64,000 bases of DNA from assembly GCA_046292385.1 (NCBI GenBank), contig JBKBRF010000011.1, positions 1-64,000 of the forward strand. The letters run 5' to 3'. Positions within the stretch are counted from its first letter, which is position 1, and each line of letters begins with the position of its first letter. Shown here one piece after another: positions 8,676 to 26,763 of the stretch. The DNA comes from Armatimonadota bacterium (lineage in GTDB: Bacteria > Armatimonadota > SYMT01). A program made the translations under genes and the position numbers. Under the pieces are notes generated by a model, which saw only the letters and a list, made by a program, of their open reading frames with translations, searched no databases and was not told the origin of the DNA.

Positions 8676-9461
8676 TCACTTCCCGGCCTGCGGCTCCGCC
8701 GGCCGGACCTCGAACTCGATCGCGGCTTCCCGGCCGCGGCGGCGGACCCGCAGCGAGACCGCGTCGGCCGGCAGGTACGCCTCGTCGTAAACCAGCGGCC
8801 GCCCCGCCGCGTCGAGCGTGACCCGCTCCGAAAGCCAGGCCCCGCCTCCCGCCGGCCGCTGCAGCCGTCCCGCCGCCTCGGGTGGGAGCGCCGCCACCGT
8901 CAACCGCTCCTCCGCGGAGACCGGGATACGACCGGTCGCCTCGCGCAGCCGCACGTAGAGCGAGGCGTCCGGGGTCATTCCCTGCACCACCGCCGCCAGC
9001 TCTCCCGGCAGGTAAGACGTCTGCACCGCCATCGGCCGCCCCTCGGCAGACCGCAGCCGCACCACCGCCGCCAGCAGTGCCTTCGCCTCCAACCCCAGCG
9101 CCTCCGCGGCCCGTGGGTGGCGAACCTCTGTGCGCCGCTCGCACACCTCGGTCGCGGTGGCGAGCGCTTGCTCCGCCATCTGCGACGAAAAGCTGGGGAG
9201 CTGCAGCTCGAATTGCTCGTGCCAGGCGGTCACGAAGGTTCCGACGCCGTGCTCCACCCGCAGCAGCCCCTCCTCCTCCAGTGACCGGAGCGCCCGCCTC
9301 ACCGTGATCGCGGTGGTGCGGTACTCGCGCGCCAGCTCGCTGATCGCCGGGAGCTGCTGCCCCACCCGCAGGCGACCCTCCCGCACCGATCGCCGAAGCT
9401 GGTCCGCGATCCCGGAGAACCCGGAGCGCTGCAATTGGAGGGGCGAAGGAGAAGTAGACAT
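8676..9461 (-). CDS. GntR family regulator, HutC/UTRA subfamily
   Basis: N-terminal winged HTH ([30 protein letters not shown]) and UTRA-like C-terminal domain ([22 protein letters not shown]). Confidence 0.9.
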
Positions 9462-9575: not shown

Positions 9576-10442
9576 CTAGCGGGTGGCGACTGCCGCTTCG
9601 GCTTCGGCGGCTTCCGCCTCCGCCGCGTTCGGAAGCTGCTCCGGGAAGAAAAGGCCGCGCTGGCGGGCCATAAAACCGGAAAGCCGCTGGATCGCCTGGC
9701 TGTGGAGCTGGTGCGCCCGGCTCTCCGACCGCCCGATGTGCTTGGCGATCTGCTTCAGCGTCCAGCCCTCATAGTAGTAGTAGACGATGACGGTGCGCTC
9801 CTGGGCCGGCAGCCAGGAGATGCAGCGCGCCAGCTGGCTCTTCTGGCTGTCCACGATCGCCAGCACGTGCGGGTCCGGCGCCTTGCTCTTCACCGACTCC
9901 AGCACCACCAGCGGATCCGCATCCTCTCGATCCGAGTCTCCCACCACGTCCTCGAGCGAGACCACCTGCAGGACGTTCGCCTCGTAGTAAAGCTGGTAGA
10001 AAGCGTCGATCGGCATCTCCAGGTGGTTCGCCCGATCGCTGTCGGTCACGTTCTCCACGCCCTTGGCTCGCGCGAGCTCCTCTTCCGCCTTGTTGAGGAG
10101 CTTCTGCTTGGTGCGGACGCTGCGCGGGACCCAGTCTTCACGGCGAAGATACTCCAGCATCGCGCCGCGGATCATCGAGATCGCGTAGGACTCGAACTTG
10201 ACCTTCCGTCCCAGGTCGAAGTGATCCACCGCCTTCACGAGGGCGATGAAGCCTTCCTGATCCAGGTCTTCCGGTGCGATCTTCACCGGTACCGTCGGAA
10301 TGATCCGCTGGCGCGTCTTCGTGATCAGGTAGCGGTAGTGCTCGATGATCCCGTCCCGGGAGCGAGAGCACTTGCGGTGCTTGAAGTTGTGCCAGAGAGA
10401 CTGCAAAGCAGCCTGGAGCTCAGCGGAGGTTCTTCTGGACAT
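9576..10442 (-). CDS. fliA: FliA/WhiG family RNA polymerase sigma factor (sigma-28-like)
   Basis: EDLDQEGFIALVKAVDHFD, KFESYA..IRGAMLEYLRREDWVPRSVR, and region 4 YYYEGWTLKQIA..SESRAHQLHSQAI. Confidence 0.88.
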   Translation of the reverse strand: MSRRTSAELQAALQSLWHNFKHRKCSRSRDGIIEHYRYLITKTRQRIIPTVPVKIAPEDLDQEGFIALVKAVDHFDLGRKVKFESYAISMIRGAMLEYLRREDWVPRSVRTKQKLLNKAEEELARAKGVENVTDSDRANHLEMPIDAFYQLYYEANVLQVVSLEDVVGDSDREDADPLVVLESVKSKAPDPHVLAIVDSQKSQLARCISWLPAQERTVIVYYYYEGWTLKQIAKHIGRSESRAHQLHSQAIQRLSGFMARQRGLFFPEQLPNAAEAEAAEAEAAVATR

Positions 10443-11112
10443 GGCGGAGTGTCCCTCTCGGATGCAGCCAGGATGCGCGGCGGCGCCGCGCCAAGATAGT
10501 TTCTCAGTCCGTTTTCATTGTCCCCACATGCGGCAGGCAGATGCTAAACGCCTGCTTCTGTGAGGTACAAGCAACCGTCATCCACGCCGAACCCGGTCCG
10601 GAGGGTGGGTTGCTCGAGCGCTAGCCCTCTCCAGGCGGCGGGTACACCCGCTAGGGAGGGGGCCGAACGGCGGGCTCTGGAGCCGCACGCAGTACCCGAA
10701 ACCGGCGGCCGAAATCGAATCGGCGCGTGGTGGTTGGTGTGTAGGAACTTCGCTCCGGCTCGATTCAACTCCTGCCACTCCGGCCCATTTTTTCTGCACT
10801 TTTTGCCACCACGCACGCTCCGAATCAGAAGGTACAGATCCACGCTGAACGCTTGGTCGGAGGCCGAACGTACGAGCGTGCGATTGACTGTGCGAGAAGC
10901 AGAAGTGAGGTGGAAGGAGGGCCTGTCTCATGGGGCACCGAGCGACCGAGCCCTCGCCGGCGTGTGGGCCGGGCGTAGGGTGAACCGGATTATTGGCACC
11001 ATTTGCCACCCTCTTGAGAGCCGGATGTACGGCGCCGTGGGAGAGGTGGGGAGACGCAGCGACCAATGAAAAAGAGCGACGATCCATGGGAGATCGCCGC
11101 TCTCTAGATCCA

Positions 11113-11944: not shown

Positions 11945-12272
11945 GCTCTCTCTGGAAGAGCGGGACCGCCTGCTCGACCGCATGGCCGACGAGGTGCTGA
12001 AGCGGCGGCTGGAGGTGCCGGCGATCCTGGCGCTGGAGCTGCACCGCCCGCTCACCTTCCTCGGCAGCCAGGCGGTGGCGCTCTTCACGCCGATGCTCGC
12101 GCCGGCGTTCGGCCTCGCCAACCTGGAGAAGCTCTACCACTTGCTGGAAGACCGTGGGAACCTCGACCTCCTGCTGGAGCGGATCGAAGCGGGCGCGGCC
12201 GAGCGGCGCGGTGAAGGGTGCTCTCCGGAGCCGGTGTCGGCCGCGGCTGCCGCGGGAAAGAGCGAGCCATGA
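11937..12272 (+). CDS. Small conserved hypothetical protein
   Basis: Helical protein RRLEVPAILALELHRPLTFLGSQ..LLEDRGNLDLLLERIE; overlaps both neighbours. An alternative ATG is at 11925. Confidence 0.75.
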   Translation: MSELSLEERDRLLDRMADEVLKRRLEVPAILALELHRPLTFLGSQAVALFTPMLAPAFGLANLEKLYHLLEDRGNLDLLLERIEAGAAERRGEGCSPEPVSAAAAAGKSEP

Positions 12273-13225
12273 ACGTAAACACGGTCCAGGCCCCCGCCCC
12301 GGACGCCGGCCCCGTCCCGCGCCGCTCCTGGTTCGGCATGCTGTGCGGTGGGCTCCTCCTGGTCGGGATGCTGCTCGGTCTCGCCGCCCTTTTCGGTCCG
12401 GCGCACTTCCGGTCCGGCGCCTACTGGCGGGAGTTCCTGGCGGCGCGCGGGCTGGTGCTCGTCTTCTCGCTGCTGATCCTGGGGGCGATCCTCGACGCGC
12501 GCCGCGGCGGCGAGGTCTTCATCCGCCGCATTCCCGGGCTCGGCGCGATCGATGAGACGGTCGGACGCGCCACCGAGATGGGCCGTCCGATCACCTTCTC
12601 GCTCGGGATGAGCCAGTCGCTCGACATCATCGCGATGCAGTCGCTCGCCATCGCGCTCCACGTGATCCGGCTCGCCATCGTCTTCGGGACCCGCGTGATC
12701 GTGACGATGCGGAACGCCACCGTTTACGCCGTGGCGGACGAGACGATCCGCGAGGCTTACACGGCCGCCGGGCGGCCGGAGAGCTACCACCCGGAGGACG
12801 TGCGGTTCCTCTCGGACCGGCAGTTCGCCTACGCTTCCGCGATGATGGGAACGATCATCCGCGAGCGCGCCGCCTCCAACTACATGTTCGGGCAGTTCTA
12901 CGCGGAGTCGCTAATCCTGGCGGAGGCCGGCAACCAGGTCGGCGCGATCCAGGTAGCGGGGACGCCGGCGACCACCCAGATCCCGTTCTTCGTGGCGACC
13001 TGCGACTACACGATCATCGGCGACGAGTACTACGCCGCCACCGCCTATCTCACGCGCGATCCGATCCTCTCCGGCAGTCTGCAGGGGCAGGACCGCGCCA
13101 AGATGCTGCTGCTCGCCCTGATCCTGTTCGGCGTGGTGGCAGTGACGGTGCTCGCGCTGCTCGGCGGAGAGACGGCGGCCGGCTGGAGCGCCGCGCTCAT
13201 CGAGTTGTTCTCGGAAGGGAAGTAG
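12269..13225 (+). CDS. DUF6754-like membrane-anchored protein
   Basis: IRRIPGLGAIDETVGRATEMGRP, FYAESLILAEAG, QIPFFVATCDYTIIGDEYYAATAYL recalled as DUF6754 signatures; N- and C-terminal TM helices; ATGA coupling. Confidence 0.75.
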   Translation: MNVNTVQAPAPDAGPVPRRSWFGMLCGGLLLVGMLLGLAALFGPAHFRSGAYWREFLAARGLVLVFSLLILGAILDARRGGEVFIRRIPGLGAIDETVGRATEMGRPITFSLGMSQSLDIIAMQSLAIALHVIRLAIVFGTRVIVTMRNATVYAVADETIREAYTAAGRPESYHPEDVRFLSDRQFAYASAMMGTIIRERAASNYMFGQFYAESLILAEAGNQVGAIQVAGTPATTQIPFFVATCDYTIIGDEYYAATAYLTRDPILSGSLQGQDRAKMLLLALILFGVVAVTVLALLGGETAAGWSAALIELFSEGK

Positions 13226-13261
13226 GACCGTACGTGAGAGACCGGGGAGCGCCTGGACCGC

Positions 13262-14128
13262 ATGCCTGATCTTGCCACCCTCCTGTTCTGGCTGAAAGTC
13301 GCCGGAGCGCTCGCGGCAGCGCTCGGCCTGCTGGCAGTGCTGCACTTCACGCCGGGACAGTTCAAGCGCGTCCTGATCATCGGCCTCACCTTCGTGGCCG
13401 GCTTGTTCTACGTGCTGGAGTTCTTCGTGCCTCCGGACCCGGTCACGGAAGCCGCCCTGCTCGGCCCGTGGAACCTGACGGATACCGTGGGGACGATCGG
13501 CCGCGTCACGCAGGTGGTAGCCGGTTTCACCTTCCTGCTGGGCGTCTTCAACCTGGCGCGGATCCACGGCAACAACATCCGCAGGCTCCGGGCCGGCTGG
13601 CACAATAGCGCGGCGTTTTTCGTCGCCTTTCTGGCCATGACGATCACCGCGGTCTGGCGGGACTGGAACACCTGGTTCCCCGCCAACCCCGTCTTCACGC
13701 CGCTGTGGATCAACGACATCCGCCCGGAGAACGCCGCCCTCCCCCACGACGCCTACACGCTGCTCTTCCAGGGCCTGTGGCGCAACCTGGAGGCGACGAT
13801 GTTCTCCATCCTCGCCTTCTACATCGTCTCCGCCGCCTACCGGGCGTTCCGGGTGCGCAGCGGCGAGGCGGCGGTGCTGATGATCGTGGCCGTGATCCTG
13901 ATGATGGGGCAGGTCCCGCTGGGGATGGCGCTCACCAACTGGATCCCGCCGGAACCGGGTCCGTTTGCGATTCTGCGGATCGAATCGTTCAGCCAGTACG
14001 TCCTCGTAGCGATCAACGGCCCCGTCCAGCGCGCTATCGAGTTCGGCATCGGCCTCGGCTCCCTCGCCATGGCGCTCCGGATCTGGCTGAGCCTGGAGCG
14101 AGGCACCTACTTCGACGCGGCAGACTAG
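13262..14128 (+). CDS. Hypothetical polytopic membrane protein
   Basis: About 7 hydrophobic segments; ATMFSILAFYIVSAAYRAFRVRS and RAIEFGIGLG..LRIWLSLER motifs. Confidence 0.85.
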   Translation: MPDLATLLFWLKVAGALAAALGLLAVLHFTPGQFKRVLIIGLTFVAGLFYVLEFFVPPDPVTEAALLGPWNLTDTVGTIGRVTQVVAGFTFLLGVFNLARIHGNNIRRLRAGWHNSAAFFVAFLAMTITAVWRDWNTWFPANPVFTPLWINDIRPENAALPHDAYTLLFQGLWRNLEATMFSILAFYIVSAAYRAFRVRSGEAAVLMIVAVILMMGQVPLGMALTNWIPPEPGPFAILRIESFSQYVLVAINGPVQRAIEFGIGLGSLAMALRIWLSLERGTYFDAAD

Positions 14129-14146
14129 GCGCACACCGCTGGCCGG

Positions 14147-14179
14147 CTAGACCCTAGACCCTGAACCCTAGACCCTGAG
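14147..14179. repeat. Heptamer tandem repeat (CTAGACC/CTGAACC)
   Basis: ctagaccctagaccctgaaccctagaccctgag; similar runs at 289-314 and 23261-23280. Confidence 0.6.
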
Positions 14180-14180
14180 C

Positions 14181-15056
14181 ATGCAAGCGCCAACCAGAAA
14201 CCCAAGCTGGGAAGACCGGATCGGACGCATCGACCGCCGCCTCGTCTACTGCGGGCTCTTCCTATTCACGCTGATCCCGCTGCTGCTGGGCGTCCAGCTT
14301 CCGCTTTACGTGACGCGTCCCACCATCATGCTCTGGGAGACGATCGAGGCGCTGCCGCAGGACCGGCTGGTGCTGATCAGCTCCAACTGGGATGCCGGCA
14401 CGCAGGCGGAGACCGGACCGCAGCTCGTCGCAATCGCGCGGCACCTGATCCGGCGCAACCTGCGCTTCGCCATCTTCTCGATCGGCTACCCCACCTCGCC
14501 ACAGCTCGCGCAGACGGCGGTGGAGCAGGCGATCCTGCTGGAGGGGGCGCGGGACACCTGGGTCTACGGCGAAGACTGGATCAACATGGGCTACAAGCAG
14601 CCGGAGCTACCGTGGCTGCGGGCGTTCGCCGCCGATATCCGGAGCGGTTACACCACCGACTGGAAAGGCGTGCCGCTCGATAGCTTCGCGCTGATGCAGG
14701 GCGTGCGGCGGTTCGGGCCGCGCGGGCAGATCAGCGCGCTGGTGGAGGTGACCGGATCGGAGACGGTCGACCGCTGGTACGAGTTCCTGAGCCCCACCGG
14801 CGTCAAGCTGGTCCTCGGCTGCACCGCGGTGATGGCGCCGGAGCAGTATCCCTACCTCGACTCCGGCCAGCTCAACGGCTTGTTGACCGGGATGAAGGGC
14901 GCGGCGGAGTATGAGCAGCTCATCGGCGCGCCGGGCACCGGCCTGGTGTTGATGACGGGGCAATCGTTCGCGCACCTCTACATCGTGCTGCTGATCGCGC
15001 TGGGGAACGCGGCGCTGATCGCCGGCCGGCTGGAGCGGCGGAGGCGCGCGCCATGA
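14181..15056 (+). CDS. Hypothetical protein with N- and C-terminal TM helices and a central soluble domain
   Basis: IDRRLVY + TM; YGEDWINMGY; PYLDSGQLNGLLTGMKGAAEYE; QSFAHL + TM. Confidence 0.85.
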   Translation: MQAPTRNPSWEDRIGRIDRRLVYCGLFLFTLIPLLLGVQLPLYVTRPTIMLWETIEALPQDRLVLISSNWDAGTQAETGPQLVAIARHLIRRNLRFAIFSIGYPTSPQLAQTAVEQAILLEGARDTWVYGEDWINMGYKQPELPWLRAFAADIRSGYTTDWKGVPLDSFALMQGVRRFGPRGQISALVEVTGSETVDRWYEFLSPTGVKLVLGCTAVMAPEQYPYLDSGQLNGLLTGMKGAAEYEQLIGAPGTGLVLMTGQSFAHLYIVLLIALGNAALIAGRLERRRRAP

Positions 15057-15727
15057 TCAGTCCCTTCGTCTTCGAAGGCGCCGTCATCTGGCTGGGCGCG
15101 CTCGCTACGCTGGCGCTCTACTCCGTCCTCTACCGGGAGAACCCGGTCTACCGCTTCGCGGAGCATGTCTTCCTGGGGCTCGCCACCGGGTACGGTCTCT
15201 ACGTGATCTGGCGGGACGTGCTCTTCCCGGTCTGGTTCACCCCGCTCTTCATCGAGCGCCAGTGGGCGTGGATCCTGCCGCTGGTAGCAGGCGGGATGTA
15301 CTACACCATCTACAGCCGCCGGCTCTCCTGGATGAGCCGGCTGGTGATGATGACGATGATGGGCCTGGCGGCGGGACTCACCTTCCGGACCTTCTATGGC
15401 CGCTACATCCCGCAGATCGGCGCCTCCTTCAAGCCGCTCGTCGTGATGGTCCCGAATCCGGATGGAGTGGGCGTGAACCTGCCGGCCAGCCTGTTCACCT
15501 CGTTCACCAACGTGCTCTTCCTCGTCTGCCTCGTCTCCGTGATGGTCTACTTCCTCTTCTCCTTCGAGCAGCGGAACCCGGCCGTACGGCGGACCGCCTC
15601 CCTCGGCCGCTGGCTGATGATGATCGCCTTCGGAGCGATGTTCGGAGCGACCGTGATGGCGCGCCTGTCGCTCTTCATCGGACGCCTCGACTTCCTCTTC
15701 CGGGACTGGATCCCGCTCATTCGCTAA
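15053..15727 (+). CDS. Hypothetical polytopic membrane protein
   Basis: YSVLYRENPVYRFAEHVFLG and GRWLMMIAFGAMFGATVMARLSLFIGR; about 6 TM; ATGA coupling. Confidence 0.85.
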   Translation: MISPFVFEGAVIWLGALATLALYSVLYRENPVYRFAEHVFLGLATGYGLYVIWRDVLFPVWFTPLFIERQWAWILPLVAGGMYYTIYSRRLSWMSRLVMMTMMGLAAGLTFRTFYGRYIPQIGASFKPLVVMVPNPDGVGVNLPASLFTSFTNVLFLVCLVSVMVYFLFSFEQRNPAVRRTASLGRWLMMIAFGAMFGATVMARLSLFIGRLDFLFRDWIPLIR

Positions 15728-16824: not shown

Positions 16825-18087
16825 CTAGGCGCGGCGGGCGGTCCAGAGGAGTGCGTTGTGGAGTAGGCGCTGCAGCTCGTGCGACGGATCGCCGGGCTGC
16901 ACCGCGGGCTGGAAGTAAAAGACGCGGCCTTTGGCGGCGTTCCAGGCCAGACCCTGCCAGATCCGCGCGTCGCCCGCGGTGGTATCGAAGACCACCACGT
17001 CCGGGCGCGGACCGTCCCACGCGCCGGTGAAGTGGCGCGCGTCCTGAATGTGGAAGCCGGAGAGGCCGCTCGCGACCGGGTGCCGCGGTGCGGTGACGCG
17101 CAGCTCCAGGGGAGCCTCGGAGGCCTGCATCGCACCGGTCCAGCGGCAGTCACCGCCCAGTACCGGCCGCAGCAGCGAGCTCTCCATCGCGCCGTGCAGC
17201 GCTACCAGCCCCATCCCCTCGTCGCGGACGCGGCGGGCGATAACAGCGGCGCGGTCAGCCGGCAGCTCTCCACCCAGGTAGACCAGCACTTCCGCGCGGC
17301 GCAGCGCGGCGTCGTCCAGCCCGGCCGGGTCGACCGTCACCACCTCCACGGAGGCATCGCGGCCCAGCGTCTCGGCCGCCGCACTCGTCTCCGCCGAACT
17401 GCCGCAGACGAGGACGCGGACCGGTCCGGACGCTTCCGCCTCTTCCGCCAGGCTCAGGTGCGCCATGGCGGCACCGGCGGCGGCGACGGTTCCCATCCGC
17501 AGGAAAGCGCGGCGGCTGTGCGCGCGAGGGGCCGCGGCCGGCTCCTCTTCCGCGCCGCCGATGCCGCCCAGCAGCTTTCGCAGGTAATTGTGGGCGCGGT
17601 GCAGCCGGGAGCGGATGGTGCCGACCGGGCACTCTTCCGCCTGGGCCGCCTCTTCATAAGTGGCGCCTTCCAGGTCGCACAACAGCACGGTGGCGCGGTG
17701 GACCGGCTGAAGTGAGTCGAGCGCGGTCTGAAACGGCTGGTCCAGGTGCTCCAGGAGCAGCGCCTCTTCCGGGTCGGCGTCCGGATCCGGGAGGTCGAGA
17801 GACTGCCCGTCCCGCGTCGTCTGCTCCAGAGAGACGGTGGGGTGCTGCTTCCGCCGCACGCGGTCGAGGTGGTTGTTCGTCATGATCCGCGCCACCCAGC
17901 TGTAGAACTGGCTATCGGCGCGGAAGCGGTGAAAGCCGCGGTAGGCGTCGATGAGCGTCTCCTGCAGCAGGTCATCCGCGTCTTCCGCGTTACCCGCCAG
18001 GCGTCGAGCCAGGCGCTGGAACGCGGCCCGATGGCGGGCGACCAACTCTTCGTACGTCTCGGCCGAGCCCTGGAATAGCGTCGACAA
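16825..18087 (-). CDS. ECF sigma factor fused via a twin-arginine-like segment to a ThuA-like domain
   Basis: Sigma2 (DADDLLQETLIDAYR..FYSWVARI), sigma4 (YEEAA..PVGTIRSRLHRA), SRRAFL + hydrophobic stretch + AEA, then GMGLVALH, HPVASGL, KGRVFYFQP, NALLW. TTG start after GGAGGGAGG. Confidence 0.85.
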   Translation of the reverse strand: MSTLFQGSAETYEELVARHRAAFQRLARRLAGNAEDADDLLQETLIDAYRGFHRFRADSQFYSWVARIMTNNHLDRVRRKQHPTVSLEQTTRDGQSLDLPDPDADPEEALLLEHLDQPFQTALDSLQPVHRATVLLCDLEGATYEEAAQAEECPVGTIRSRLHRAHNYLRKLLGGIGGAEEEPAAAPRAHSRRAFLRMGTVAAAGAAMAHLSLAEEAEASGPVRVLVCGSSAETSAAAETLGRDASVEVVTVDPAGLDDAALRRAEVLVYLGGELPADRAAVIARRVRDEGMGLVALHGAMESSLLRPVLGGDCRWTGAMQASEAPLELRVTAPRHPVASGLSGFHIQDARHFTGAWDGPRPDVVVFDTTAGDARIWQGLAWNAAKGRVFYFQPAVQPGDPSHELQRLLHNALLWTARRA

Positions 18088-18135: not shown

Positions 18136-18165
18136 ATTATCCCCCCTTTCGAGAGTCCAGGTCAA
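18136..18165 (-). promoter_or_regulatory. Putative sigma70 promoter of the ECF fusion gene
   Basis: TTGACC-N18-GATAAT on the minus strand. Confidence 0.45.
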
Positions 18166-18342: not shown

Positions 18343-18558
18343 ATGAATGAGGATATCGCCGGCACCCAGACCACCGACCGACGCCGCGAGTACGGCACCT
18401 GCGCAGAGTGCGGCCAGGTCTTCCGCCGACGCGACGGCTACGTGGAGCCGTCGGGGCTGACCGACGACAGCCACTCCGAGTTCTCCGAGCTCTGCCCCGA
18501 GTGCGAGCGGCTGGACCTCACCGGCGAGCGGCCCCTTTTCACGGGTCCCGAGGAGTAG
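18343..18558 (+). CDS. Small acidic protein with two CxxC motifs (putative Zn ribbon)
   Basis: AAGGAGG RBS; CAEC ... CPEC; coding-like codon bias. Confidence 0.7.
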   Translation: MNEDIAGTQTTDRRREYGTCAECGQVFRRRDGYVEPSGLTDDSHSEFSELCPECERLDLTGERPLFTGPEE

Positions 18559-18954
18559 CCCTCCCCGCACCCCGACAGCGGCCACCTCTGGTCCGGCGAA
18601 GGTCCTGCAGGACCGCAGCCGGACCTCTGTGCGCCCCCTCGGCGGAGGGGGCGAGCTTGAGCGCCGGGAGCACCCCCGTGAACTGAGCGTCCGGTGCGGA
18701 GCTCTCGCTCGGTCGCGGGATGACGGCCGCGGTGTCGACGCCAGATTGGGGCTGCTAGCCCGCAGGGCGTGAAAAGCCCCGATCTGGCCCAGAACGCGGG
18801 AGGGGGTGCTCCCGGAGCGAGGGCTGGGGTGGGAACCTCGTGTCGACGCTGCCCCGGCCAGGCAGATCCGAGGTTGGCGACCCGATCAACGCGACCAAGG
18901 TCCGCTAACCCCTCCCCAACCCGACGTGATAGCTTCTTCCGGGAGGAAACCACC

Positions 18955-19989
18955 GTGAGCAGCGTCCGCTTCGGGATCGTCGGGTTGGGAATTGGTCGGG
19001 ACCAGGGTCGGGCCATCGCGAACGACCCCCGTGGGCGCGTGACCGCGCTCTGCGACCTCAGCGAGGAGCGGATGGAGGCGTACGCCGCCGAGCTGCCGGA
19101 GGCGGTGCGGCGCCACACCTCCTACGAAGCGCTGTGCCGCGATCCGGAAGTCGACGCCGTCTTCGTCGGCACGCCGAACCAGCTCCACGTCCCGGTGGCG
19201 CTCGCCGCCGTCCGTGCGGGTAAGCACGTGCTGGTAACCAAGCCGCTTTCGGACAGCGAAGCGGCGGCGCGAGAGCTGGTCGACGCCGCGGAGCGCTCCG
19301 GCGTGGTGGCGATGATGTCGCTCGGCATGCGCTTCGGCGGCCCGATCCGGCACCTGGGCGGTCTCTCCCGCGGCGGCGAACTGGGGGAGACCTACTACGC
19401 GCGGGCGCGGAGCGTGCGCCGCAGCGGCATTCCGGACTGGGGCGCGCACTTCATCCGGCAGGGCGGCGGCGCGTTCCGAGACATGGGCGTCCACGCCCTC
19501 GACGCCGCCTGGTGGCTGATCGGCTGTCCTGCCCCGGTGAGCGCCACCGGCGTGGCCGGCGCGAAGTTCGGACCACGCGGGCAGGGCTACTGGGAGTACC
19601 ACTCCGTAAGCCCCGAATTCGCGGCCCAGTACGAGGCGGACGACTATGGCGCCGGGCTGGTCCGGTTCGAGAACGGCGCGGCAATCCAGGTGGAGAGCTT
19701 CTGGGCCTCCCACCAGCCCGACGAGTTCCAGATCGAGCTGTTCGGCACCGAAGCCGGCGCCCGCCTCGATCCGATGACGCTCTACCGCACGGTCGACGGC
19801 CGTCCCGTAGACGAGCCGCTCTCCCCTCCGGATACGGAAGGCTTCGTGAACGTCGCCGCGCACTTCATGGCATGCGTGCTCGACGGCGCCCGCTGCGAAG
19901 CCCCCCTCTCCCACGGCCTCACCGTCCAGCGCATGCTGGAAGCCGTCCTCCGCAGCGCCGAAACCGGAGCCGAAGTGCGCCTGGATTGA
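18955..19989 (+). CDS. Gfo/Idh/MocA family oxidoreductase
   Basis: GIVGLGIG, VDAVFVGTPNQLH, GKHVLVTKP, GGGAFRDMGVHALD; GGAGG RBS before GTG. Confidence 0.93.
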   Translation: MSSVRFGIVGLGIGRDQGRAIANDPRGRVTALCDLSEERMEAYAAELPEAVRRHTSYEALCRDPEVDAVFVGTPNQLHVPVALAAVRAGKHVLVTKPLSDSEAAARELVDAAERSGVVAMMSLGMRFGGPIRHLGGLSRGGELGETYYARARSVRRSGIPDWGAHFIRQGGGAFRDMGVHALDAAWWLIGCPAPVSATGVAGAKFGPRGQGYWEYHSVSPEFAAQYEADDYGAGLVRFENGAAIQVESFWASHQPDEFQIELFGTEAGARLDPMTLYRTVDGRPVDEPLSPPDTEGFVNVAAHFMACVLDGARCEAPLSHGLTVQRMLEAVLRSAETGAEVRLD

Positions 19990-21951: not shown

Positions 21952-23046
21952 CTACGGCTTGTCGGTGACGACGATCTCGCCCTTGAAGAGCTCTCCCTCC
22001 CGCTCCACGACGATCGAGAGCTTGTCGCCGATGCGGGCGGCGCTCGTGATCGCCTCGGCCTCGGCGCGGCTGCGGATCTTCTTTCCCTCCAGCTCCCGGA
22101 TGATGTCCCCAGGGCGGACGCCGGCCTGCCACGCCGGGCCGCGGCGGTCGATCCGGTCGACCAGCGCGCCTTCCGGGCGCTCCAGGCCGATCCAGGAGGC
22201 GATCTCGGGCGTCACGTCGATCGTGTTCAGCCCGGTCCAGGGGCGCTTCACCTTACCGTGGGCGATCAGCTCGTCCGCGATCCCCTTGGCGAGGTCGATC
22301 GGGATGGCGAAGCCGATGCCCTGCGCGTCCGACCGCACCACCGTGTTGATGCCGATCACGCGGCCCTGGATATCGACCAGCGGACCGCCGGAGTTGCCGG
22401 GGTTGATGGCGGCGTCGGTCTGGATCAGGCGCTTGTAGACCCGCTCCCCGATCTGCATCGCGCGTCCGGTGTGACCGACCACCCCCACGGTCACCGTCTG
22501 CTCGTAGCCGTACGGGTTGCCGATGGCGATCGCCCACTGGCCGGCCACCAGGTTGCGTGAGTCGCCGAGGCGGGCCACGGGCACGTTCTTGGCGTCCAGG
22601 ATCTGCACCAGCGCCACGTCGGTCTCACGGTCGATCCCGAGCACGCGGCCCCGGTGCGACTTCCCGTTCCCGAAGGTGACGTTGATCTCGGAGGCGCCCG
22701 CCACCACGTGCTCGTTCGTCAGCACGTAGCCGCGGGGATCGATCACCACGCCGGAGCCCTTGCCGGACGATTCGAAGGTGCGCTCGCCCAGGAACCAGTC
22801 ATCCCGCACCACGCGCCGCACGGTGTCGATATTCACGACGCTGGGGCCGGCGAGGTCGACCGCCCGGGCCACCGGCTCGTCGGCCGTCACCGCCGCCCGC
22901 GGCGCGGGGGTCTGCGCCAGCGCCTGGTGCGGCAGCGGCCCCGGCTCCCACTCGACGCGCACGCGGGGAGCGAGCCAGCTGCCGAGGAGGAAGCCGCCGG
23001 CCATCAGGACCGTGCTCCACCAGAAGCGTCCGGAACGGTTCGACAT
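21952..23046 (-). CDS. HtrA/DegP family serine protease with one PDZ domain
   Basis: GSGVVI, LTNEHVV, DVALV, IQTDAAINPGNSGGPL; PDZ domain; N-terminal TM. Confidence 0.95.
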   Translation of the reverse strand: MSNRSGRFWWSTVLMAGGFLLGSWLAPRVRVEWEPGPLPHQALAQTPAPRAAVTADEPVARAVDLAGPSVVNIDTVRRVVRDDWFLGERTFESSGKGSGVVIDPRGYVLTNEHVVAGASEINVTFGNGKSHRGRVLGIDRETDVALVQILDAKNVPVARLGDSRNLVAGQWAIAIGNPYGYEQTVTVGVVGHTGRAMQIGERVYKRLIQTDAAINPGNSGGPLVDIQGRVIGINTVVRSDAQGIGFAIPIDLAKGIADELIAHGKVKRPWTGLNTIDVTPEIASWIGLERPEGALVDRIDRRGPAWQAGVRPGDIIRELEGKKIRSRAEAEAITSAARIGDKLSIVVEREGELFKGEIVVTDKP

Positions 23047-23321
23047 GTGGATACCTCCTGCGATCTCTTCGGGAGCGCACGCCGCACCGGCGCTGGCCCC
23101 CTAACCGACATGACGCGGAAGCGCCGCCGTTTGATACTGCGATTTCCAGGCAACCGGCGCAGAACGCCTGCAAAGCCGCCGGGATCGGCGCGGACGGATG
23201 AAGGGCGCTGCAGGTTGCCAGGTTGCAAGTCAACTCCCCCGAAGGAGGAGCTCCGAACAACCTAGACCCTAGACCTTAGAGAGTCCCTGCAACCTGAGAG
23301 AGACAGCCGGCGTGCTTCCGG

Positions 23322-24761
23322 TTAGCCGAAATACTTGCCGATGTCTTTGAAGGTGATCACCAGGAACAGCACGCCGATGATGGCGAGCCCGACCAGGGCG
23401 ACCGCCTTGTGCGTCTCCGGCTCCAGCCGTCGCCCGCGGATCACTTCCCAGGTGAGCACCAGCATGTGCCCGCCGTCCAGCACGGGAATCGGCAGCAGGT
23501 TGAACACCGCCAGGGAGAGGCTGAGTGACGCGAGCATCCCGAAGTAGTACATGATCGGGAGCTGGTCGATGCCGCGCAGCACGTCGAAGATCGCGATCGG
23601 GCCGCCCACGCTCTCCCCCAGCTTGCCGATGTGCCGCGGGGTAAAGAGGCTCGCCAGCCCGACGAAGAAGTTGCTGATCCGCACCAACCCCGACTGGACC
23701 GACTCGACGAAGCCGATGCGCGGACCCTCTCCCGGCAGCAGCTCGAAGCCGAGCTGGCCGACCGTCCGCTCACCCGGCCGCACTTCGATCTCCAGCGGAG
23801 CGGCAGGGCCTTCCACCACGAGCGGGGTCTTGCCGTCTCGCCAGACCAGCAGCGTCACCGGCTGTCCCGCCTTCTCGCGGAGCAGCCGCTCGGCCGTCTG
23901 CTGGGGCATCTCGTCGCCCTCTTCCACCACCGGGAAGCTGCCGTCGATCAGCTCGAGCTGGTCGCCCGGCTTCACGTCGAGCTTCGTGCCGGCGGGGACG
24001 CTCGCGATCACGAGGAAGTCCTTCTGGACCTTCACCTCGGGCGGCACTCCTTGCAGCGTGAGACGGCGTCCCTTCCGCTCCACTTCCAGCTCCAGCTGCT
24101 TGCCCGCGCTCCGCTGGATCGTTCCGGTCACGGTCTCGCTTTTCGAGACCGGCTCGCCCTGGACGGCGACGATCCGGTCTCCCACGCGCAGCCCCTGGGG
24201 ATGGTTGGGCACTGGCTGGCCGTCGACCGAGACGACCCGCAAGCGAGTCGCTTCGGATTTCGGCTTGACCTGTCCTACCAGCACGGTGGTGCGGTCGTAC
24301 GTGCCGAAAAGCCAGCCGCTCGCGCAGAGCACCGTCACCGCCAGGATCATGTTCATCAGCGGACCGGCGAGGTAGACCAGGGCGCGCTCCGCCGGGCGCC
24401 GGCCGTTCAGGCCGTCCGGAGTGATCGGATCGTCCGGCTGCATCCCCTTGGGGTTCACGAAGCCGCCCAGGGGGAAGGCGCGGATGGTGTACTCGGTCCC
24501 CCCGCGCCGCATGTAGGTGAGGAGCTTGGGACCGAACCCCAGCGCGAACTCGTAGACGTGCACCCCGGAGGCCTTGGAGGCGATGAAGTGCCCCCACTCG
24601 TGGATCGCGACCAGAATCCCGAGCGTGATGACGAAGATCACCACGCTCTTGAGGCTCTCCCACCAGATGATGCTCGCGGCGAGCACGCCGGCCAACACCA
24701 GGAGGTTGACCAGCAGCTCGGATCGTCGCGGGGCTCCGGGTGCGTCGTTCTCGAATTCCAT
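23322..24761 (-). CDS. rseP: RIP metalloprotease RseP (M50, PDZ)
   Basis: HEWGH, FPLGGFV, AGPLMN, FNLLPIPVLDGGH; directly downstream of dxr. Confidence 0.95.
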   Translation of the reverse strand: MEFENDAPGAPRRSELLVNLLVLAGVLAASIIWWESLKSVVIFVITLGILVAIHEWGHFIASKASGVHVYEFALGFGPKLLTYMRRGGTEYTIRAFPLGGFVNPKGMQPDDPITPDGLNGRRPAERALVYLAGPLMNMILAVTVLCASGWLFGTYDRTTVLVGQVKPKSEATRLRVVSVDGQPVPNHPQGLRVGDRIVAVQGEPVSKSETVTGTIQRSAGKQLELEVERKGRRLTLQGVPPEVKVQKDFLVIASVPAGTKLDVKPGDQLELIDGSFPVVEEGDEMPQQTAERLLREKAGQPVTLLVWRDGKTPLVVEGPAAPLEIEVRPGERTVGQLGFELLPGEGPRIGFVESVQSGLVRISNFFVGLASLFTPRHIGKLGESVGGPIAIFDVLRGIDQLPIMYYFGMLASLSLSLAVFNLLPIPVLDGGHMLVLTWEVIRGRRLEPETHKAVALVGLAIIGVLFLVITFKDIGKYFG

Positions 24762-24769
24762 GCTCTTCG

Positions 24770-25900
24770 CTATTCCATCGTGCGCCGCCGGGCCCACGCG
24801 TCGAGCTCCAGCAGCGTATTCAGATCCGGATCCGCGACCACCTGGTGCTGGTTCATTACCCGCTCCACCCGCTCCGCAATCTCGGGGAACGGGATGCGGC
24901 CCTGCAGGAACAGGTCGACCGCCACCTCGTTCGCGGCACTCATCACGCCCGGCAGCGAGCCGCCCTCCGCCGCGGCGCGGAAAGCGAGCCCCAGCGCCGG
25001 AAAGCGCTCCAGGTCCGGCGGCTCGAACGTCAGCGTGCCGCAGCGGGCGAGGTCGAGCCGCTCCAGCCGGTTCGGCAGCCGCTCCGGATAGAAGACGGCG
25101 TACTGGATCGGCAGGCGCATGTCGGGCAGTCCCAGCTGCGCTACCACCGAGCTGTCCCGGAAGTAGACGAGCGAGTGGACGATGCTCTGCCGGTGCACCA
25201 CCACCTCGATCTGCGAGGCGGGCACGCCGAACAACCACCGCGCTTCGATCACTTCCAGACCCTTGTTCATCAGGGTCGCGGAATCGATCGTTATCTTACC
25301 ACCCATGTTCCAGGTCGGATGGTCGAGCGCGTTCTCCACGGTCGCCGCGCGCATCTGCTCCCGCGACTTATCGACGAACGGTCCCCCGGAGGCGGTGAGG
25401 ACCAGCTTCTCCACCTCCCGGTCCTCGCTGCCGCGCAGGCACTGCCAGATCGCGGAGTGCTCGCTGTCGATCGGCAGAATGCGCGCGCCCGACTCCCGGG
25501 CGGCGGCGGTCATCAGGTGTCCGCCCACCACCAGCGCCTCTTTGGTGGCCAGCGCCACGTCCTTTCCGGCCCGCAGCGCGGCCAGGGCGGGGGCGAGGCC
25601 GGCGGTGCCGACCACGGAGACGATGACCAGGTCGGCTTCCGGGAGGGTGGCGGCGCGGAGCAGCGCTTCCTCACCGGTCTGGATCGGGCCGGCGCTCGTC
25701 TGCAGCGCGGCGCCGGGGCGGGGATCACTCAGGGCGGCAAGGCGGGGACGGTAGCGCTCCACCTGCCCCCGCAGCGTGTCGGCATCGCTGCGGGCGGTGA
25801 GCGCCACCACTTCCAGGCGCTCTGGAAACCAGTCGACCACGTCGAGGGTCTGGCGACCGATCGAGCCGGTGGAGCCGAGAATCGCGATGCGCTTCTTCAT
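24770..25900 (-). CDS. dxr: 1-deoxy-D-xylulose 5-phosphate reductoisomerase
   Basis: ILGSTGSIG, LPIDSEHSAI, HPTWNMGGKITIDSATLMNKGLE, AANEVAV. Confidence 0.98.
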   Translation of the reverse strand: MKKRIAILGSTGSIGRQTLDVVDWFPERLEVVALTARSDADTLRGQVERYRPRLAALSDPRPGAALQTSAGPIQTGEEALLRAATLPEADLVIVSVVGTAGLAPALAALRAGKDVALATKEALVVGGHLMTAAARESGARILPIDSEHSAIWQCLRGSEDREVEKLVLTASGGPFVDKSREQMRAATVENALDHPTWNMGGKITIDSATLMNKGLEVIEARWLFGVPASQIEVVVHRQSIVHSLVYFRDSSVVAQLGLPDMRLPIQYAVFYPERLPNRLERLDLARCGTLTFEPPDLERFPALGLAFRAAAEGGSLPGVMSAANEVAVDLFLQGRIPFPEIAERVERVMNQHQVVADPDLNTLLELDAWARRRTME

Positions 25901-25983
25901 GGGGTGAGAACGTCGGGAGGGCCGTCCCCGGGCGCGGCACTGGCGCCGCCGACCAATCTCGGGGACGGTGCATTATACCGACG

Positions 25984-26763
25984 TTACGCCGCGGCGGGCC
26001 GCAGCACGCCGCCGAACCGGCGCTCCCGCGCCTGGTAGGAGCGGATTCCCTGCTTGAGCGTCTCGGCGCCGAAGTCCGGCCAGAGGGTGTCGGTCACCCA
26101 CAGCTCGCTGTAGGCGCTCTGCCAGAGCAGGAAGTTGCTGAGCCGCATCTCGTCCCCGGTGCGGATCAGGAGGTCCGGGTCCGGCAGCTCCGGGTCGTAC
26201 ATCTCCCGCGCCAGCGACTCCTCCGTAATCTCCTCCGGCTGCACCAGCCCCATCCGCGCCCGCTCCACCAGGCGCCGCGCCGCGTCGACGATCTCCGCGC
26301 GGCCGCCGTAGTTGATCGCCAGGTTCAGGTTCAGCCCGGTGTTCTCCCGCGTGAGCGCGATCCCCCGCCGGAGCTCCGCCTCCAGCGACCCGGGCAGCTC
26401 GTGCAGCCGCCCCAACACCTGCACGCGCACGTTCTTGCGGTGCAGTTCCGCGATCTCCTTCCGCGCCACGGTCTCGATCAGGCGCATCAGGAAGCCGACT
26501 TCCTCCTGCGAGCGGCGCCAGTTCTCCGTGCTGAAGGTGTAGAGCGTCAGGTGCGCGATGCCGAGCCGTCCGCAGCACTCCACCACCTCGCGCACCGAAT
26601 TCTCCCCGCGCCGGTGCCCTTCGATCCGCGGCAGGCCCCGCTGCTGCGCCCAGCGCCCGTTCCCGTCCATGATGATCGCCACGTGGCGCGGCATCCGCGC
26701 CGGATCCAGCTCCGGCTCGGTCTGCTCGGGACTCTCCAGGCACGTCTCGGAATAGCTCAACAT
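25984..26763 (-). CDS. uppS: Undecaprenyl diphosphate synthase (cis-prenyltransferase)
   Basis: HVAIIMDGNGRWA, FSTENWRR, NYGGRAEI, RLSNFLLWQSAYSE, RRFGG. Confidence 0.97.
   Translation of the reverse strand: MLSYSETCLESPEQTEPELDPARMPRHVAIIMDGNGRWAQQRGLPRIEGHRRGENSVREVVECCGRLGIAHLTLYTFSTENWRRSQEEVGFLMRLIETVARKEIAELHRKNVRVQVLGRLHELPGSLEAELRRGIALTRENTGLNLNLAINYGGRAEIVDAARRLVERARMGLVQPEEITEESLAREMYDPELPDPDLLIRTGDEMRLSNFLLWQSAYSELWVTDTLWPDFGAETLKQGIRSYQARERRFGGVLRPAAA

Follow-up and report, generated by a model that had tools for sequence, protein, structure and literature searches.

Most ECF sigma factors are kept in check by an anti-sigma protein encoded separately, and a few have their regulator fused to them as an extension. 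The closest precedents for the fused protein described here are FecR, for its internal Tat signal, and IutY, whose sigma is tethered to the membrane and freed by RseP. In IutY of Pseudomonas putida, an ECF243 sigma/anti-sigma hybrid, the sigma is described as inactive until Prc and RseP have cut (PMC5411451, PMC8999054), and variants that retain the membrane segment need RseP for activity (PMC5411451). FecR is reported to be inserted by Tat through an internal twin-arginine (RR), even with MBP as its N-terminal domain, with the final cut made by RseP (PMC12036975), and it has been classified as a 'class V' Tat substrate whose signal is non-cleaved (PMC13673990). For ECF48, ECF52 and ECF53 (e.g. 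SCO4117), which have long membrane-crossing C-terminal extensions with an extracytoplasmic carbohydrate-binding domain, proteolytic activation has been proposed (PMC8999054). A description of a sigma factor as a natural Tat substrate was not found in the literature searched, passages of ECF and Tat reviews included.

The window, a stretch of 64,000 nucleotides of contig JBKBRF010000011.1 from an Armatimonadota bacterium (GCA_046292385.1), contains a fused sigma/Tat/ThuA ORF of 420 amino acids (16825..18087, stop codon at 16825-16827). It lies on the minus strand, a detail absent from the initial annotation of this DNA. The coding part runs uninterrupted from 18087 to 16828, begins at a TTG with GGAGGGAGG directly 5' of it, and has a GC content of 0.77/0.51/0.84 at the three codon positions, which is typical for genes of the host genome. 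The sole sigma70-like promoter match (TTGACC-18-GATAAT, 18136..18165, minus strand; 10/12 matches, one site against 0.1 expected from shuffles) lies some 49 nt ahead of the start codon; it is a consensus match only, and an alternative longer frame from a TTG at 18165 would overlap it. Contigs of RNA library X17 cover parts of the sigma half, from which no sign of transcription is taken. The initial annotation had read one uninterrupted ORF with sigma2, sigma4, a linker, an RR signal, AEA and a ThuA-like domain, and this is confirmed.

Sigma region 2 (17845..18045, minus strand; residues 15-81) and sigma region 4 (17575..17736, minus strand; residues 118-171) are each recognised by Pfam (Sigma70_r2, residues 15-81, E 2e-14; Sigma70_r4_2, residues 118-165, E 8e-11), modelled by AF2 at a pLDDT of ~95, and conserved at a mean pairwise identity of 0.66. 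The sigma scores 85.8 bits against the TIGR02937 sigma70-ECF model (cut-off 42.9), as an ECF (group 4) protein with sigma2 and sigma4 domains only, while its NCBIfam equivalog matches are all under cut-off (best SigE PRK09647, 131 vs 265 bits). Among solved structures it matches M. tuberculosis SigE and SigH, AlgU and E. coli sigmaE best, and the family profile matches M. tuberculosis SigE at E 4e-42. Downstream of sigma4 follow, on the same strand, a variable linker (17524..17574; residues 172-188; identity 0.25, pLDDT <50, no Pfam match), an internal twin-arginine signal (17431..17523; residues 189-219) with a predicted signal-peptidase site after A219, and a ThuA-like passenger domain (16828..17430; residues 220-420; Pfam, alignment to PDB 1t0b, pLDDT ~95). 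The AF2 model consists of two confident domains with a low-confidence segment, residues 178-219, between them. By prediction, a sigma, a membrane segment and an extracytoplasmic domain are combined in one polypeptide, and no Pfam match to an anti-sigma domain (FecR-type or zf-HC2) was found in the extension at E <= 1. In the best explanation, the gene encodes a functional ECF sigma factor of the RpoE/SigE-like kind, and the C-terminal half of the same chain forms a complete Tat precursor.

In the window copy the order of the signal is H-S-R-R-A-F-L-R, an Ala/Gly-rich h-region (MGTVAAAGAAMAHLSL), AEE and then A-E-A, so that, with SRRAFLR, it has the features of a Tat signal (S/T-R-R-x-F-L-K, a moderate h-region and a c-region). 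The RR occupies residues 192-193 of 420, after sigma4 and not at the N-terminal position expected of Tat substrates, and such an internal location is allowed only for those of class IV/V. The initial annotation had stated that no start codon precedes the RR in the linker; indeed, no in-frame ATG, GTG or TTG occurs from residue 151 to R192-R193, and the first candidate, M198, lies past it. Pfam's TAT_signal matches residues 191-209 with 13 bits, under its cut-off of 22.7, which counts against our best explanation; family-wide, it matches 37/69 members at E <= 1, at best with 1e-4.

Motif counts rest on 69 aligned members, being the window protein and 68 full-length fused homologues at 35-57% identity. 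RR-x-[FLIVM][LIVM] is present in 65 of them, 22-31 residues past the sigma4 motif, and local alignment of these RR-bearing members shows S/T ahead of the RR, F/L/I at RR+2 and L at RR+3, each in 65/65. Apart from the sigma domains, no stretch is as well conserved as the signal: its n/h region has a mean pairwise identity of 0.55, compared to 0.25 for the preceding linker and 0.40 for the ThuA-like domain. The h-region has a median of 17 uncharged residues (41% Ala, 15% Gly), and the median of the best 19-residue hydropathy is 1.21, with only 4/65 above 1.6. The A-x-A of the RR-bearing members fits the usual pattern of signal peptidase I sites: Ala takes up position -3 in 48/60 (A/G/S in 53/60) and position -1 in 55/62 (A/G/S in 59/62), with position -2 being variable (Ala in 15/59). 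As the c-region is Ala-rich, part of this conservation could be compositional. An acidic EE pair directly ahead of the A-x-A is also conserved in the family; we know of no such feature in cleavable signals, and it counts against the best explanation.

The host genome encodes one TatC (196 bits), four TatA/B-type proteins, signal peptidase S26 at several loci and an RseP-type M50 protease, and has its copy of the canonical RpoE-type module on contig C47. It also encodes a stand-alone ThuA paralogue (contig C37) that, within this genome, is most closely related to residues 195-419 and begins with an N-terminal MNRRDLL..ASA, followed by QGPIRVLCW. Among the window neighbours of the fused gene no anti-sigma Pfam domain was found, and anti-sigma, M50 or HtrA (trypsin-like) neighbours occur in 0/9 other fused loci (L097, L098, L099, L100, L105, L107, L109, L110 and L111), scanned with a GC3-based ORF filter that missed some genes, including the fused gene of L099, and that small ORFs may have escaped. 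This agrees with the earlier remark that no anti-sigma gene lies alongside. The closest stand-alone sigmas, which belong to other families, have a zf-HC2 anti-sigma and MucB/RseB (L103) or HtrA (L102, L104 and L106) at their loci, and judging from these neighbours the sigma lineage is one ordinarily controlled by membrane proteolysis.

Several candidate partners were rejected. DUF4139 is a convergent neighbour in three loci (L097, L107, L111), an AAA ATPase lies upstream in two (L100, L107), a sulfatase nearby in two (L097, L099) and a 3-keto-disaccharide hydrolase divergently in one (L098), and none of these is found in the window. Likewise, a divergent 71-aa Cys-rich ORF (18343-18558), considered as a hidden anti-sigma family feature, has no Pfam match, and tblastn against 12 fused loci gave nothing below E 0.02. 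As for target promoters, no ECF-type dyad is common to more than 2 of 9 upstream regions, and the sequence GGAAC-N16/17-ACGCT[CT], picked by eye from three loci, has 13 genome hits, mid-range of 60 permuted controls (1-61). That neither an ECF-type target promoter nor a conserved regulon partner was found among these loci counts against the best explanation.

From this architecture, the conservation of each signal element and the presence of Tat, signal peptidase I and RseP in the genome, we infer export of the passenger, tethering of the sigma and its inactivation thereby, and two cleavages. The whole protein would fold in the cytoplasm, after which the internal SRRAFL would engage TatBC and the folded ThuA-like domain would cross the cytoplasmic membrane while the sigma stays inside, in a FecR-like 'class V' topology; that the passenger is exported by Tat and the sigma remains cytoplasmic, we consider probable. 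The short, weakly hydrophobic h-region would then hold the sigma at the membrane, where, by analogy with IutY, it would be inactive. Signal peptidase I would cut the conserved A-x-A after A219 and leave the ThuA-like protein free in the periplasm, and the remaining stub of sigma and signal peptide, with almost no periplasmic tail, would be cut within the h-region by RseP or another signal-peptide-clearing protease, allowing the sigma to bind RNA polymerase. RseP has been described as eliminating signal peptides (PMC8144685). The full chain, with signal peptidase making the first cut and RseP following, has in our estimate a chance close to, though somewhat under, an even balance. Such a sequence of cuts would couple sigma release one-to-one to Tat export of the passenger, without an anti-sigma factor.

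Tentatively, and aware that it may well be wrong, we propose an export-coupled transcription switch, in which the sigma sits where a cleavable Tat signal peptide would have an N-terminal extension, and each translocation plus housekeeping cuts would free one sigma. If true, signal peptidase would be the 'site-1 protease', with neither a dedicated site-1 protease nor an anti-sigma needed, and regulon transcription would serve as a readout of Tat flux, of how far the membrane is energised, or of whether the passenger is folded or ligand-bound while in the cytoplasm. It counts against the best explanation that the signal is internal, and that the known class V substrate FecR is described as non-cleaved (PMC13673990), as does the lack of an obvious stimulus to sense if release were automatic.

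In the model of the initial annotation, as elaborated here, the Tat signal would be an uncleaved signal-anchor that keeps the ThuA-like domain in the periplasm as a ligand or stress sensor, and a regulated site-1 protease (HtrA/DegS-like or Prc-like) would cut upon a signal, prior to RseP, in FecR- or IutY-style regulated intramembrane proteolysis; as a whole we find this reading doubtful. It shares the evidence for export, namely the RR conservation and the Tat machinery, with the switch, it is in line with the non-cleaved internal signal of FecR (PMC13673990), and IutY works in exactly this manner (PMC5411451). Furthermore, anti-sigma, RseB and HtrA genes adjoin the closest stand-alone sigmas, and in the window itself HtrA (21952-23046) and RseP (M50 + PDZ; 23322-25238) are located 3.9 to 7.2 kb from the fused gene. 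These distances agree with the initial annotation, which had allowed for coincidence, and with 0/9 other fused loci having either gene, their proximity is no family feature. The window RseP adjoins dxr and uppS, which is a common housekeeping cluster. The signal itself argues against a lasting sensor tether: Ala at -3 and -1 with a variable -2 would be purposeless in an uncleaved anchor, and a short, weakly hydrophobic h-region would make a poor permanent one. Conservation of a whole cleavable-type signal, A-x-A included, speaks for removal of the passenger by signal peptidase and against its retention as a tethered sensor. The idea of a tethered sigma freed by proteolysis has direct precedents in IutY (PMC5411451) and FecR (PMC12036975).

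In the passenger, ThuA (PF06283) is matched over residues 233-416 with 49.2 bits against a cut-off of 33.4, and at E <= 1 in 65/69 members; the family profile finds 1t0b at E 3.7e-42, and Foldseek does so at E 8e-13 with a TM of 0.70 normalised to the target, indicating a ThuA/GATase1-like fold. Aligned to 1t0b, the window copy has GMGLVALH, APRHPV and GRVFYFQP, but DARHFTG in place of EEMYGE and QPAVQ in place of RPGHE, the canonical residues that 1t0b and the own-genome paralogues share. The scaffold motifs are therefore kept and EEMY and PGH lost, as had been noted from the sequence, which would suit binding over catalysis. However, PGH is retained in 27/69 fused homologues, such that a 'degenerate', non-catalytic sensor fits the window copy and is no trait of the family. 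To our knowledge, the catalytic residues of ThuA have not been established. A regulated sensor role for this domain is possible but unsupported.

Alternatively, the ThuA-like domain could be a cytoplasmic extension that modulates the sigma in cis, in the style of ECF41/ECF42 and perhaps via a sugar-derived ligand, with the RR and h-region being a relic or linker. Four members (P0063, P0065, P0066 and P0068) lack both RR and h-region, and keep the domain with its invariant APRHP, GRGRVF and RNA..W, which counts against the export-based explanation, as it means that export is not indispensable for every member and that the domain can stay in the cytoplasm. Moreover, among the ways in which ECF sigmas are regulated, C-terminal extensions are described as second in frequency (PMC7826278), and a divergent Gfo/Idh/MocA oxidoreductase is found 0.7 kb from the fused gene, where 58 such matches in 7.04 Mb give an estimated ~3% chance of one within +/-2 kb. 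These RR-less members, however, form one nested, derived subclade, and a relic would hardly explain why the signal is conserved at 0.55 next to a linker at 0.25. Docking of the domain onto the sigma in cis is unsupported by the AF2 monomers of both the window protein (pTM 0.54) and the RR-less P0066 (pTM 0.55), which have disordered linkers and show no confident docking, a weakly negative result. We regard this explanation as improbable.

The distribution of the fused architecture bears on its origin. Searches matched 71 other proteins (P0004-P0074) at E <= 4e-55, and both query halves were matched by 21 of the 150 representatives listed from the exhaustive library. Within its Armatimonadota family, the fusion is carried by 6/6 other genomes; sampling of other families did not reveal it, and of the 401 genomes searched in the phylum, the 5 others with a match have the sigma part only. 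In the tree, all fused sigmas group together in one clade (SH-aLRT 99), which shows a single origin of the fusion. Pattern scans, dominated by generic sigma motifs, gave two fused loci on genome contigs, and about nine fused or cut fused ones on metagenome contigs. Contigs from the metagenomes of other studies bridge the sigma4/signal/ThuA junction without indels, one spanning 17410-17620 with 0 differences (X2 record 8), and another spanning 17464-17614 with two substitutions (X4 record 25), both at silent third positions by codon count. No split relatives with separate genes were found; the sole candidate, P0121 (194 aa, sigma only), is placed inside the RR-less subclade. Other long ECF proteins (P0097-P0119) were rejected as relatives of the Tat form, since 20/23 have a hydrophobic segment above 1.6, and no clear RR was seen before it, P0111 (LRRMTML) being a doubtful exception; theirs is a different design. 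That a recent stop loss, frameshift or chimeric assembly merged a sigma gene with an adjacent Tat-ThuA gene is, even though both halves also occur as separate gene types in this genome, next to inconceivable given these homologues, their clade and the bridged junction, and is refuted as far as sequence data reach. The initial annotation had named separate genes in relatives, or an RR not conserved among fused homologues, as findings that would overturn it; with the fusion real and conserved, and the RR kept in 65/69, neither was encountered.

If the model holds, a sigma factor would for the first time be a Tat substrate in its own right, and 'class V', so far represented by FecR, would gain just its second kind of member. 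The system would constitute a minimal intramembrane-proteolysis circuit that borrows housekeeping proteases, tying gene expression directly to folded-protein export, and as such could provide a compact, portable part for synthetic export-to-transcription reporters.

How does the fused protein compare to known systems? Like IutY, it would be one polypeptide that runs from an ECF sigma in the cytoplasm through a single membrane segment to a domain in the periplasm. The periplasmic part of IutY is a FecR-type anti-sigma domain working with the TonB-dependent receptor IutA, whereas that of the window protein is ThuA-like, with no receptor gene nearby; moreover, its sigma is of the RpoE/SigE-like lineage and its membrane segment a full Tat signal with A-x-A, unlike in IutY. 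In the accessible text of the IutY paper (PMC5411451), twin-arginine has 0 occurrences. With FecR it shares an internal RR after a folded cytoplasmic domain, and a C-terminal domain that is Tat-translocated, in the window protein by prediction. Two confident AF2 domains flank the signal in the window protein, which fits the class V architecture, export being predicted only. FecR, as described, is a self-cleaving sigma regulator gated by FecA/TonB, whereas in the window protein the sigma itself makes up the cytoplasmic domain, and the A-x-A is conserved, which suggests cleavage and would depart from class V as defined in PMC13673990.

ECF48, ECF52 and ECF53 have ordinary transmembrane helices in their extensions, together with an anti-sigma domain of the zinc-finger type. 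The fused family has, instead, a variable linker of ~25 residues (17 in the window), no anti-sigma domain and a Tat signal, so that, as predicted from the sequence, a complete and conserved Tat precursor takes the place of an anti-sigma domain or an ordinary membrane helix. ECF41/ECF42-type sigmas, like the fused family, have no anti-sigma gene and a fused C-terminal domain as presumed regulator (PMC7826278), but their SnoaL-like or TPR extensions are without a membrane or export signal, and resemble only the four RR-less members. The stand-alone Tat-ThuA protein of the same genome has the same order of parts as residues 189-420, with RR, an Ala/Gly h-region, A-x-A and a first strand RVL, and differs from the fused protein in that the latter has ~190 residues of sigma in front. 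Finally, genes of the RpoE-RseA-RseB-DegS/RseP module type adjoin the nearest stand-alone sigmas, whereas the fused sigma dispenses with a separate anti-sigma and would have its link to the membrane built in.

The fused protein is encoded on the minus strand as an ORF of 420 aa without interruption, which starts at a TTG codon (18087) preceded by GGAGGGAGG, and ends with a stop codon at 16825-16827. A consensus match to a sigma70-like promoter, TTGACC-18-GATAAT, is located at 18165..18136 (-), and is the sole one in 2.3 kb, where 0.1 would be expected. Pfam places Sigma70_r2 at residues 15-81, Sigma70_r4_2 at 118-165, ThuA at 233-416 (49.2 bits, cut-off 33.4), and a TAT_signal below threshold at 191-209. 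The N-terminal half belongs to the ECF superfamily by NCBIfam TIGR02937 (85.8 bits, cut-off 42.9), and its best named NCBIfam models, SigE, SigM and RpoE, all score under their own cut-offs. In the codon table of the linker, ATG, GTG and TTG are absent between residue 151 and R192-R193, which rules out separate initiation of a Tat precursor. Alignment to 1t0b, a solved ThuA-like structure, shows how the ThuA-like domain retains GMGLVALH, APRHPV and GRVFYFQP, while DARHFTG replaces EEMYGE, and QPAVQ replaces RPGHE. The initial annotation had described precisely this arrangement, i.e. a single ORF running from sigma2 and sigma4 through a linker devoid of start codons and an RR signal into a ThuA-like domain that keeps its scaffold motifs and lacks EEMY and PGH, with no anti-sigma gene alongside, to which we add only the strand. 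In an AlphaFold2 model (69-sequence alignment, mean pLDDT 85), both the sigma2 and sigma4 domains and the ThuA-like domain (223-420) reach a pLDDT of about 95, residues 178-219 stay under 50, a helix at 192-205 being predicted there with low confidence, and the pTM of 0.54 means that the two halves are not confidently packed. Foldseek returns 1t0b as the top match (TM 0.70 normalised to target), followed by ECF sigma structures, and the family profile likewise matches both 1t0b (E 3.7e-42) and M. tuberculosis SigE (E 4e-42).

Among 5.8 billion proteins searched through a word index, 71 further proteins (P0004-P0074) matched at E <= 4e-55. Sigma and ThuA Pfam labels occur together on 60 of the 72 rows that include the window's own, and source names, where stated, indicate an origin in Armatimonadetes/Armatimonadota. 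HMMER, run exhaustively against 1.84 billion cluster representatives, gave 34 proteins at E <= 1e-30, and both query halves were matched by 21 of the 150 matches listed. After omission of P0056, P0067, P0069, P0071, P0074 and P0075, which are cut at one end, the window protein was aligned with 68 full-length homologues (69 rows). The internal RR motif that the initial annotation had read from the window copy proves to be a property of the family: RR-x-[FLIVM][LIVM] is kept in 65/69 proteins, beginning 22-31 residues past the sigma4 motif. Upon local alignment of these 65, RR is invariably preceded by S or T (65/65), RR+2 is F, L or I (65/65), RR+3 is L (65/65), and the position thereafter is R in 42/58 and Q in 7/58. 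The resulting consensus, HSRRAFLR-MGTAAAAGAALTQL, fits the textbook Tat motif S/T-R-R-x-F-L-K. An uncharged stretch follows (median 17 residues; 41% Ala, 15% Gly, 10% Thr), where hydropathy over the best 19 residues reaches a median of 1.21 and exceeds 1.6 in only 4/65. In the c-region an A-x-A stands behind an acidic pair, with Ala at -3 in 48/60 (A/G/S 53/60) and at -1 in 55/62 (A/G/S 59/62), and a free -2 position (Ala 15/59; R 8, E 6, G 6). From there it is 4-6 residues to [VIL]-R-V-L-V-W, the strand with which the ThuA fold opens. Mean pairwise identity within the family is 0.66 for both sigma2 and sigma4, 0.25 for the linker after sigma4, 0.55 for the signal n/h region, 0.32 for its c-region and 0.40 for the ThuA-like domain. 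As such, the signal is more strongly constrained than its putative passenger. With E <= 1 as the limit, Pfam TAT_signal matches 37/69 members, the best at 1e-4, and a Rieske Tat-signal model 13/69. Unlike this weak h-region, other long ECF proteins from the search (P0097-P0119) have a Leu/Val-rich segment above 1.6 in 20/23, and by eye a clear RR precedes it in none, LRRMTML of P0111 being a doubtful case. Many of these metagenome sigmas share a conserved pre-membrane motif, roughly ALTEGVLKAMLLTKLK, behind which come a helix of strong hydrophobicity and outer domains of several kinds (WD40/PD40, PQQ, FGE-sulfatase, secretin-N); theirs is a separate, non-Tat one-component design.

So how might such a protein function? 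We favour a course in which the folded ThuA-like domain would be exported via Tat, and signal peptidase I would cleave after A219, leaving a sigma-plus-signal-peptide stub of the short-tailed type that RseP accepts, whose sigma, presumed inactive while tethered, would then be set free. This preference is based on the conserved A-x-A, the weak h-region, and the precedents of FecR, IutY and RseP. The topology in which a folded cytoplasmic domain stands ahead of an internal Tat signal is already accepted, FecR being the protein on which a review from 2026 bases its class V of Tat substrates (PMC13673990). FecR needs Arg79-Arg80 and tatABC before RseP's final cut, even with MBP swapped for its N-terminal domain (PMC12036975). 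Retention of a sigma at the membrane and its liberation by RseP are likewise established: IutY variants retaining the membrane segment require RseP, and IutY stripped of most of its periplasmic part is constitutively active (PMC5411451; PMC8999054). Signal peptides, too, are cleared by RseP (PMC8144685). In the window's genome, which measures 7.04 Mb and is 98% complete, there are genes for one TatC, four TatA/B-type proteins, several S26 signal peptidases, and M50 proteases among which the window's PDZ-bearing RseP scores best. While architecture, conservation, single origin and the presence of the machinery are demonstrated, export, tethering, the two cuts and the inactivity of a tethered sigma are inferred. 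Judging from the signal, export of the ThuA-like passenger is probable; the whole chain up to RseP and sigma release, drawn by analogy, is a tentative proposal to which we give somewhat less than even credence. Against it speak the sub-threshold TAT_signal score of the window copy, the uncleaved signal of the known class V case, the Ala-rich c-region, in which A-x-A may be partly compositional, the conserved EE pair ahead of it, for which the chain has no explanation, and a subclade without RR, in which the domain is kept without export. Furthermore, neither a regulon nor an ECF-type target promoter was found, the latter upon comparing dyads across 9 upstream regions and the candidate with permuted controls. 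If release were automatic, the switch might sense Tat flux, the energisation of the membrane, or the passenger's state of folding or ligand binding.

The initial annotation instead proposed that a folded, non-catalytic sensor is exported via Tat and that proteolysis frees the membrane-tethered sigma, a variant that would involve an uncleaved anchor and a regulated site-1 cut of the periplasmic sensor. The signal of FecR, the known class V case, is indeed uncleaved; given the conserved A-x-A and weak h-region, we consider this variant rather unlikely. More doubtful still is a purely cytoplasmic regulatory extension, for which the RR-less members P0063, P0065, P0066 and P0068 would plead, as they keep the ThuA-like domain without export (the model of P0066 is alike, with a pTM of 0.55 and a disordered linker). 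These four form one subclade, nested in a 6-row group (SH-aLRT 99) to which P0060, with its RR intact, also belongs, from which it follows that loss of the signal is secondary. That an artefact joined two genes is next to inconceivable: the fused form is present in 6/6 other genomes of the window's family (4 copies complete, 2 cut by contig ends) among 401 genomes sampled across the phylum, and soil and root metagenome contigs from other studies bridge the sigma4/signal/ThuA junction without indels (run X2, record 8, 17410-17620, 0 differences; run X4, record 25, 17464-17614, 2 substitutions, both silent third positions by codon count). On sequence grounds, this disposes of the stop loss or chimeric assembly that the initial annotation had wished to see checked.

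Outside this family, five of the sampled genomes match with the sigma half alone (44-49% identity), and the fusion design is conserved within one Armatimonadota family. In a maximum-likelihood tree on sigma halves (87 rows: 69 fused, 13 stand-alone representatives, 4 other-family locus sigmas, and as outgroup the sigma of contig C47 of the window's genome), every fused protein falls in one clade (SH-aLRT 99). This clade also holds P0121, a sigma-only protein of 194 aa, which nests among RR-less fused forms, still has an SRRAG remnant in its tail, and may have arisen by truncation or splitting. The nearest stand-alone sigmas have classical envelope-stress neighbours, namely a zf-HC2 anti-sigma and MucB/RseB (locus L103) or HtrA (L102, L104, L106). 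As the window's genome retains on C47 (locus L002, 1441-3508) a canonical operon of ECF sigma, zf-HC2 anti-sigma and HtrA, the fused sigma is an extra paralogue rather than a replacement. Beside other ThuA paralogues that begin with RR signals, this genome has a stand-alone one on contig C37, which at 31% identity is the nearest own-genome relative of residues 195-419 of the fused protein and starts with MNRRDLLGAVTAAAGAGLVGAQQASA followed by QGPIRVLCW, in which order and spacing of the parts are identical to residues 189-228. The simplest history is one fusion event, in the family ancestor, between an RpoE/SigE-like sigma gene and a Tat-ThuA precursor gene.

RseP (M50 and PDZ, 23322-25238, -) directly adjoins dxr and uppS, and HtrA (21952-23046, -) adjoins RseP, the row uppS, dxr, rseP, htrA spanning 21952-26763 (-). 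The initial annotation allowed that this closeness might be coincidental, and since 0/9 other fused loci scanned have an M50 or HtrA neighbour, we regard it as housekeeping-cluster synteny, at most a vestige of ancestral sigma-HtrA linkage. A LysR regulator is the convergent immediate neighbour of the fused gene. Divergent from the fused gene lies a 71-aa ORF (18343-18558, +) behind a strong ribosome-binding site, AAGGAGG. Its product contains CxxC twice (CAEC...CPEC), matches no Pfam model, belongs to no family, and lacks a counterpart next to the fused gene at other loci. At 0.7 kb, a Gfo/Idh/MocA oxidoreductase (18769-19989, +) gives a neighbourhood resembling the thuA-thuB pairing; with 58 such matches genome-wide, the chance of this closeness is estimated at about 3%, and the pairing does not recur across fused loci. 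The oxidoreductase ORF, as listed, opens with a long stretch rich in Arg and Pro that is probably untranslated, and its Rossmann motif starts at VSSVRFGIVGLG. A large DUF4139 protein, missing from the window, is convergent to the fused gene in 3/9 other loci (L097 5659-7773; L107 4485-6677; L111 1468-3198). Elsewhere in the window, a second sigma-70 family gene of 312 aa with regions 2 and 4 (9576-10514, -) adjoins a GntR/UTRA regulator (8676-9461), and a DUF6754 gene possibly forms an operon with three same-strand ORFs without Pfam match (13262-14128, 14181-15056, 15053-15727; together 12218-15727, +). On the minus strand, the frame of a class IV aminotransferase (27083-28108), taken from stop to stop, shares about 160 nt with that of an N6/N4 DNA methylase (27949-28785), and the downstream gene probably starts later than listed.

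A full-text literature search for an ECF sigma with ThuA returned only unrelated Streptomyces work. The main text of the ECF reclassification paper contains no ThuA, trehalose, twin-arginine or Armatimonadetes, and 'sigma factor' is absent from the Tat review that names FecR as class V example (PMC13673990). Extensions that span the membrane are listed only together with anti-sigma domains in a review of non-canonical ECFs (PMC8999054). Where such one-component, membrane-linked ECF sigmas carry an anti-sigma domain and a transmembrane helix, the present family carries a complete Tat precursor instead. On these grounds we rate the design as known in its one-component, membrane-linked ECF layout, and as new in its Tat precursor.
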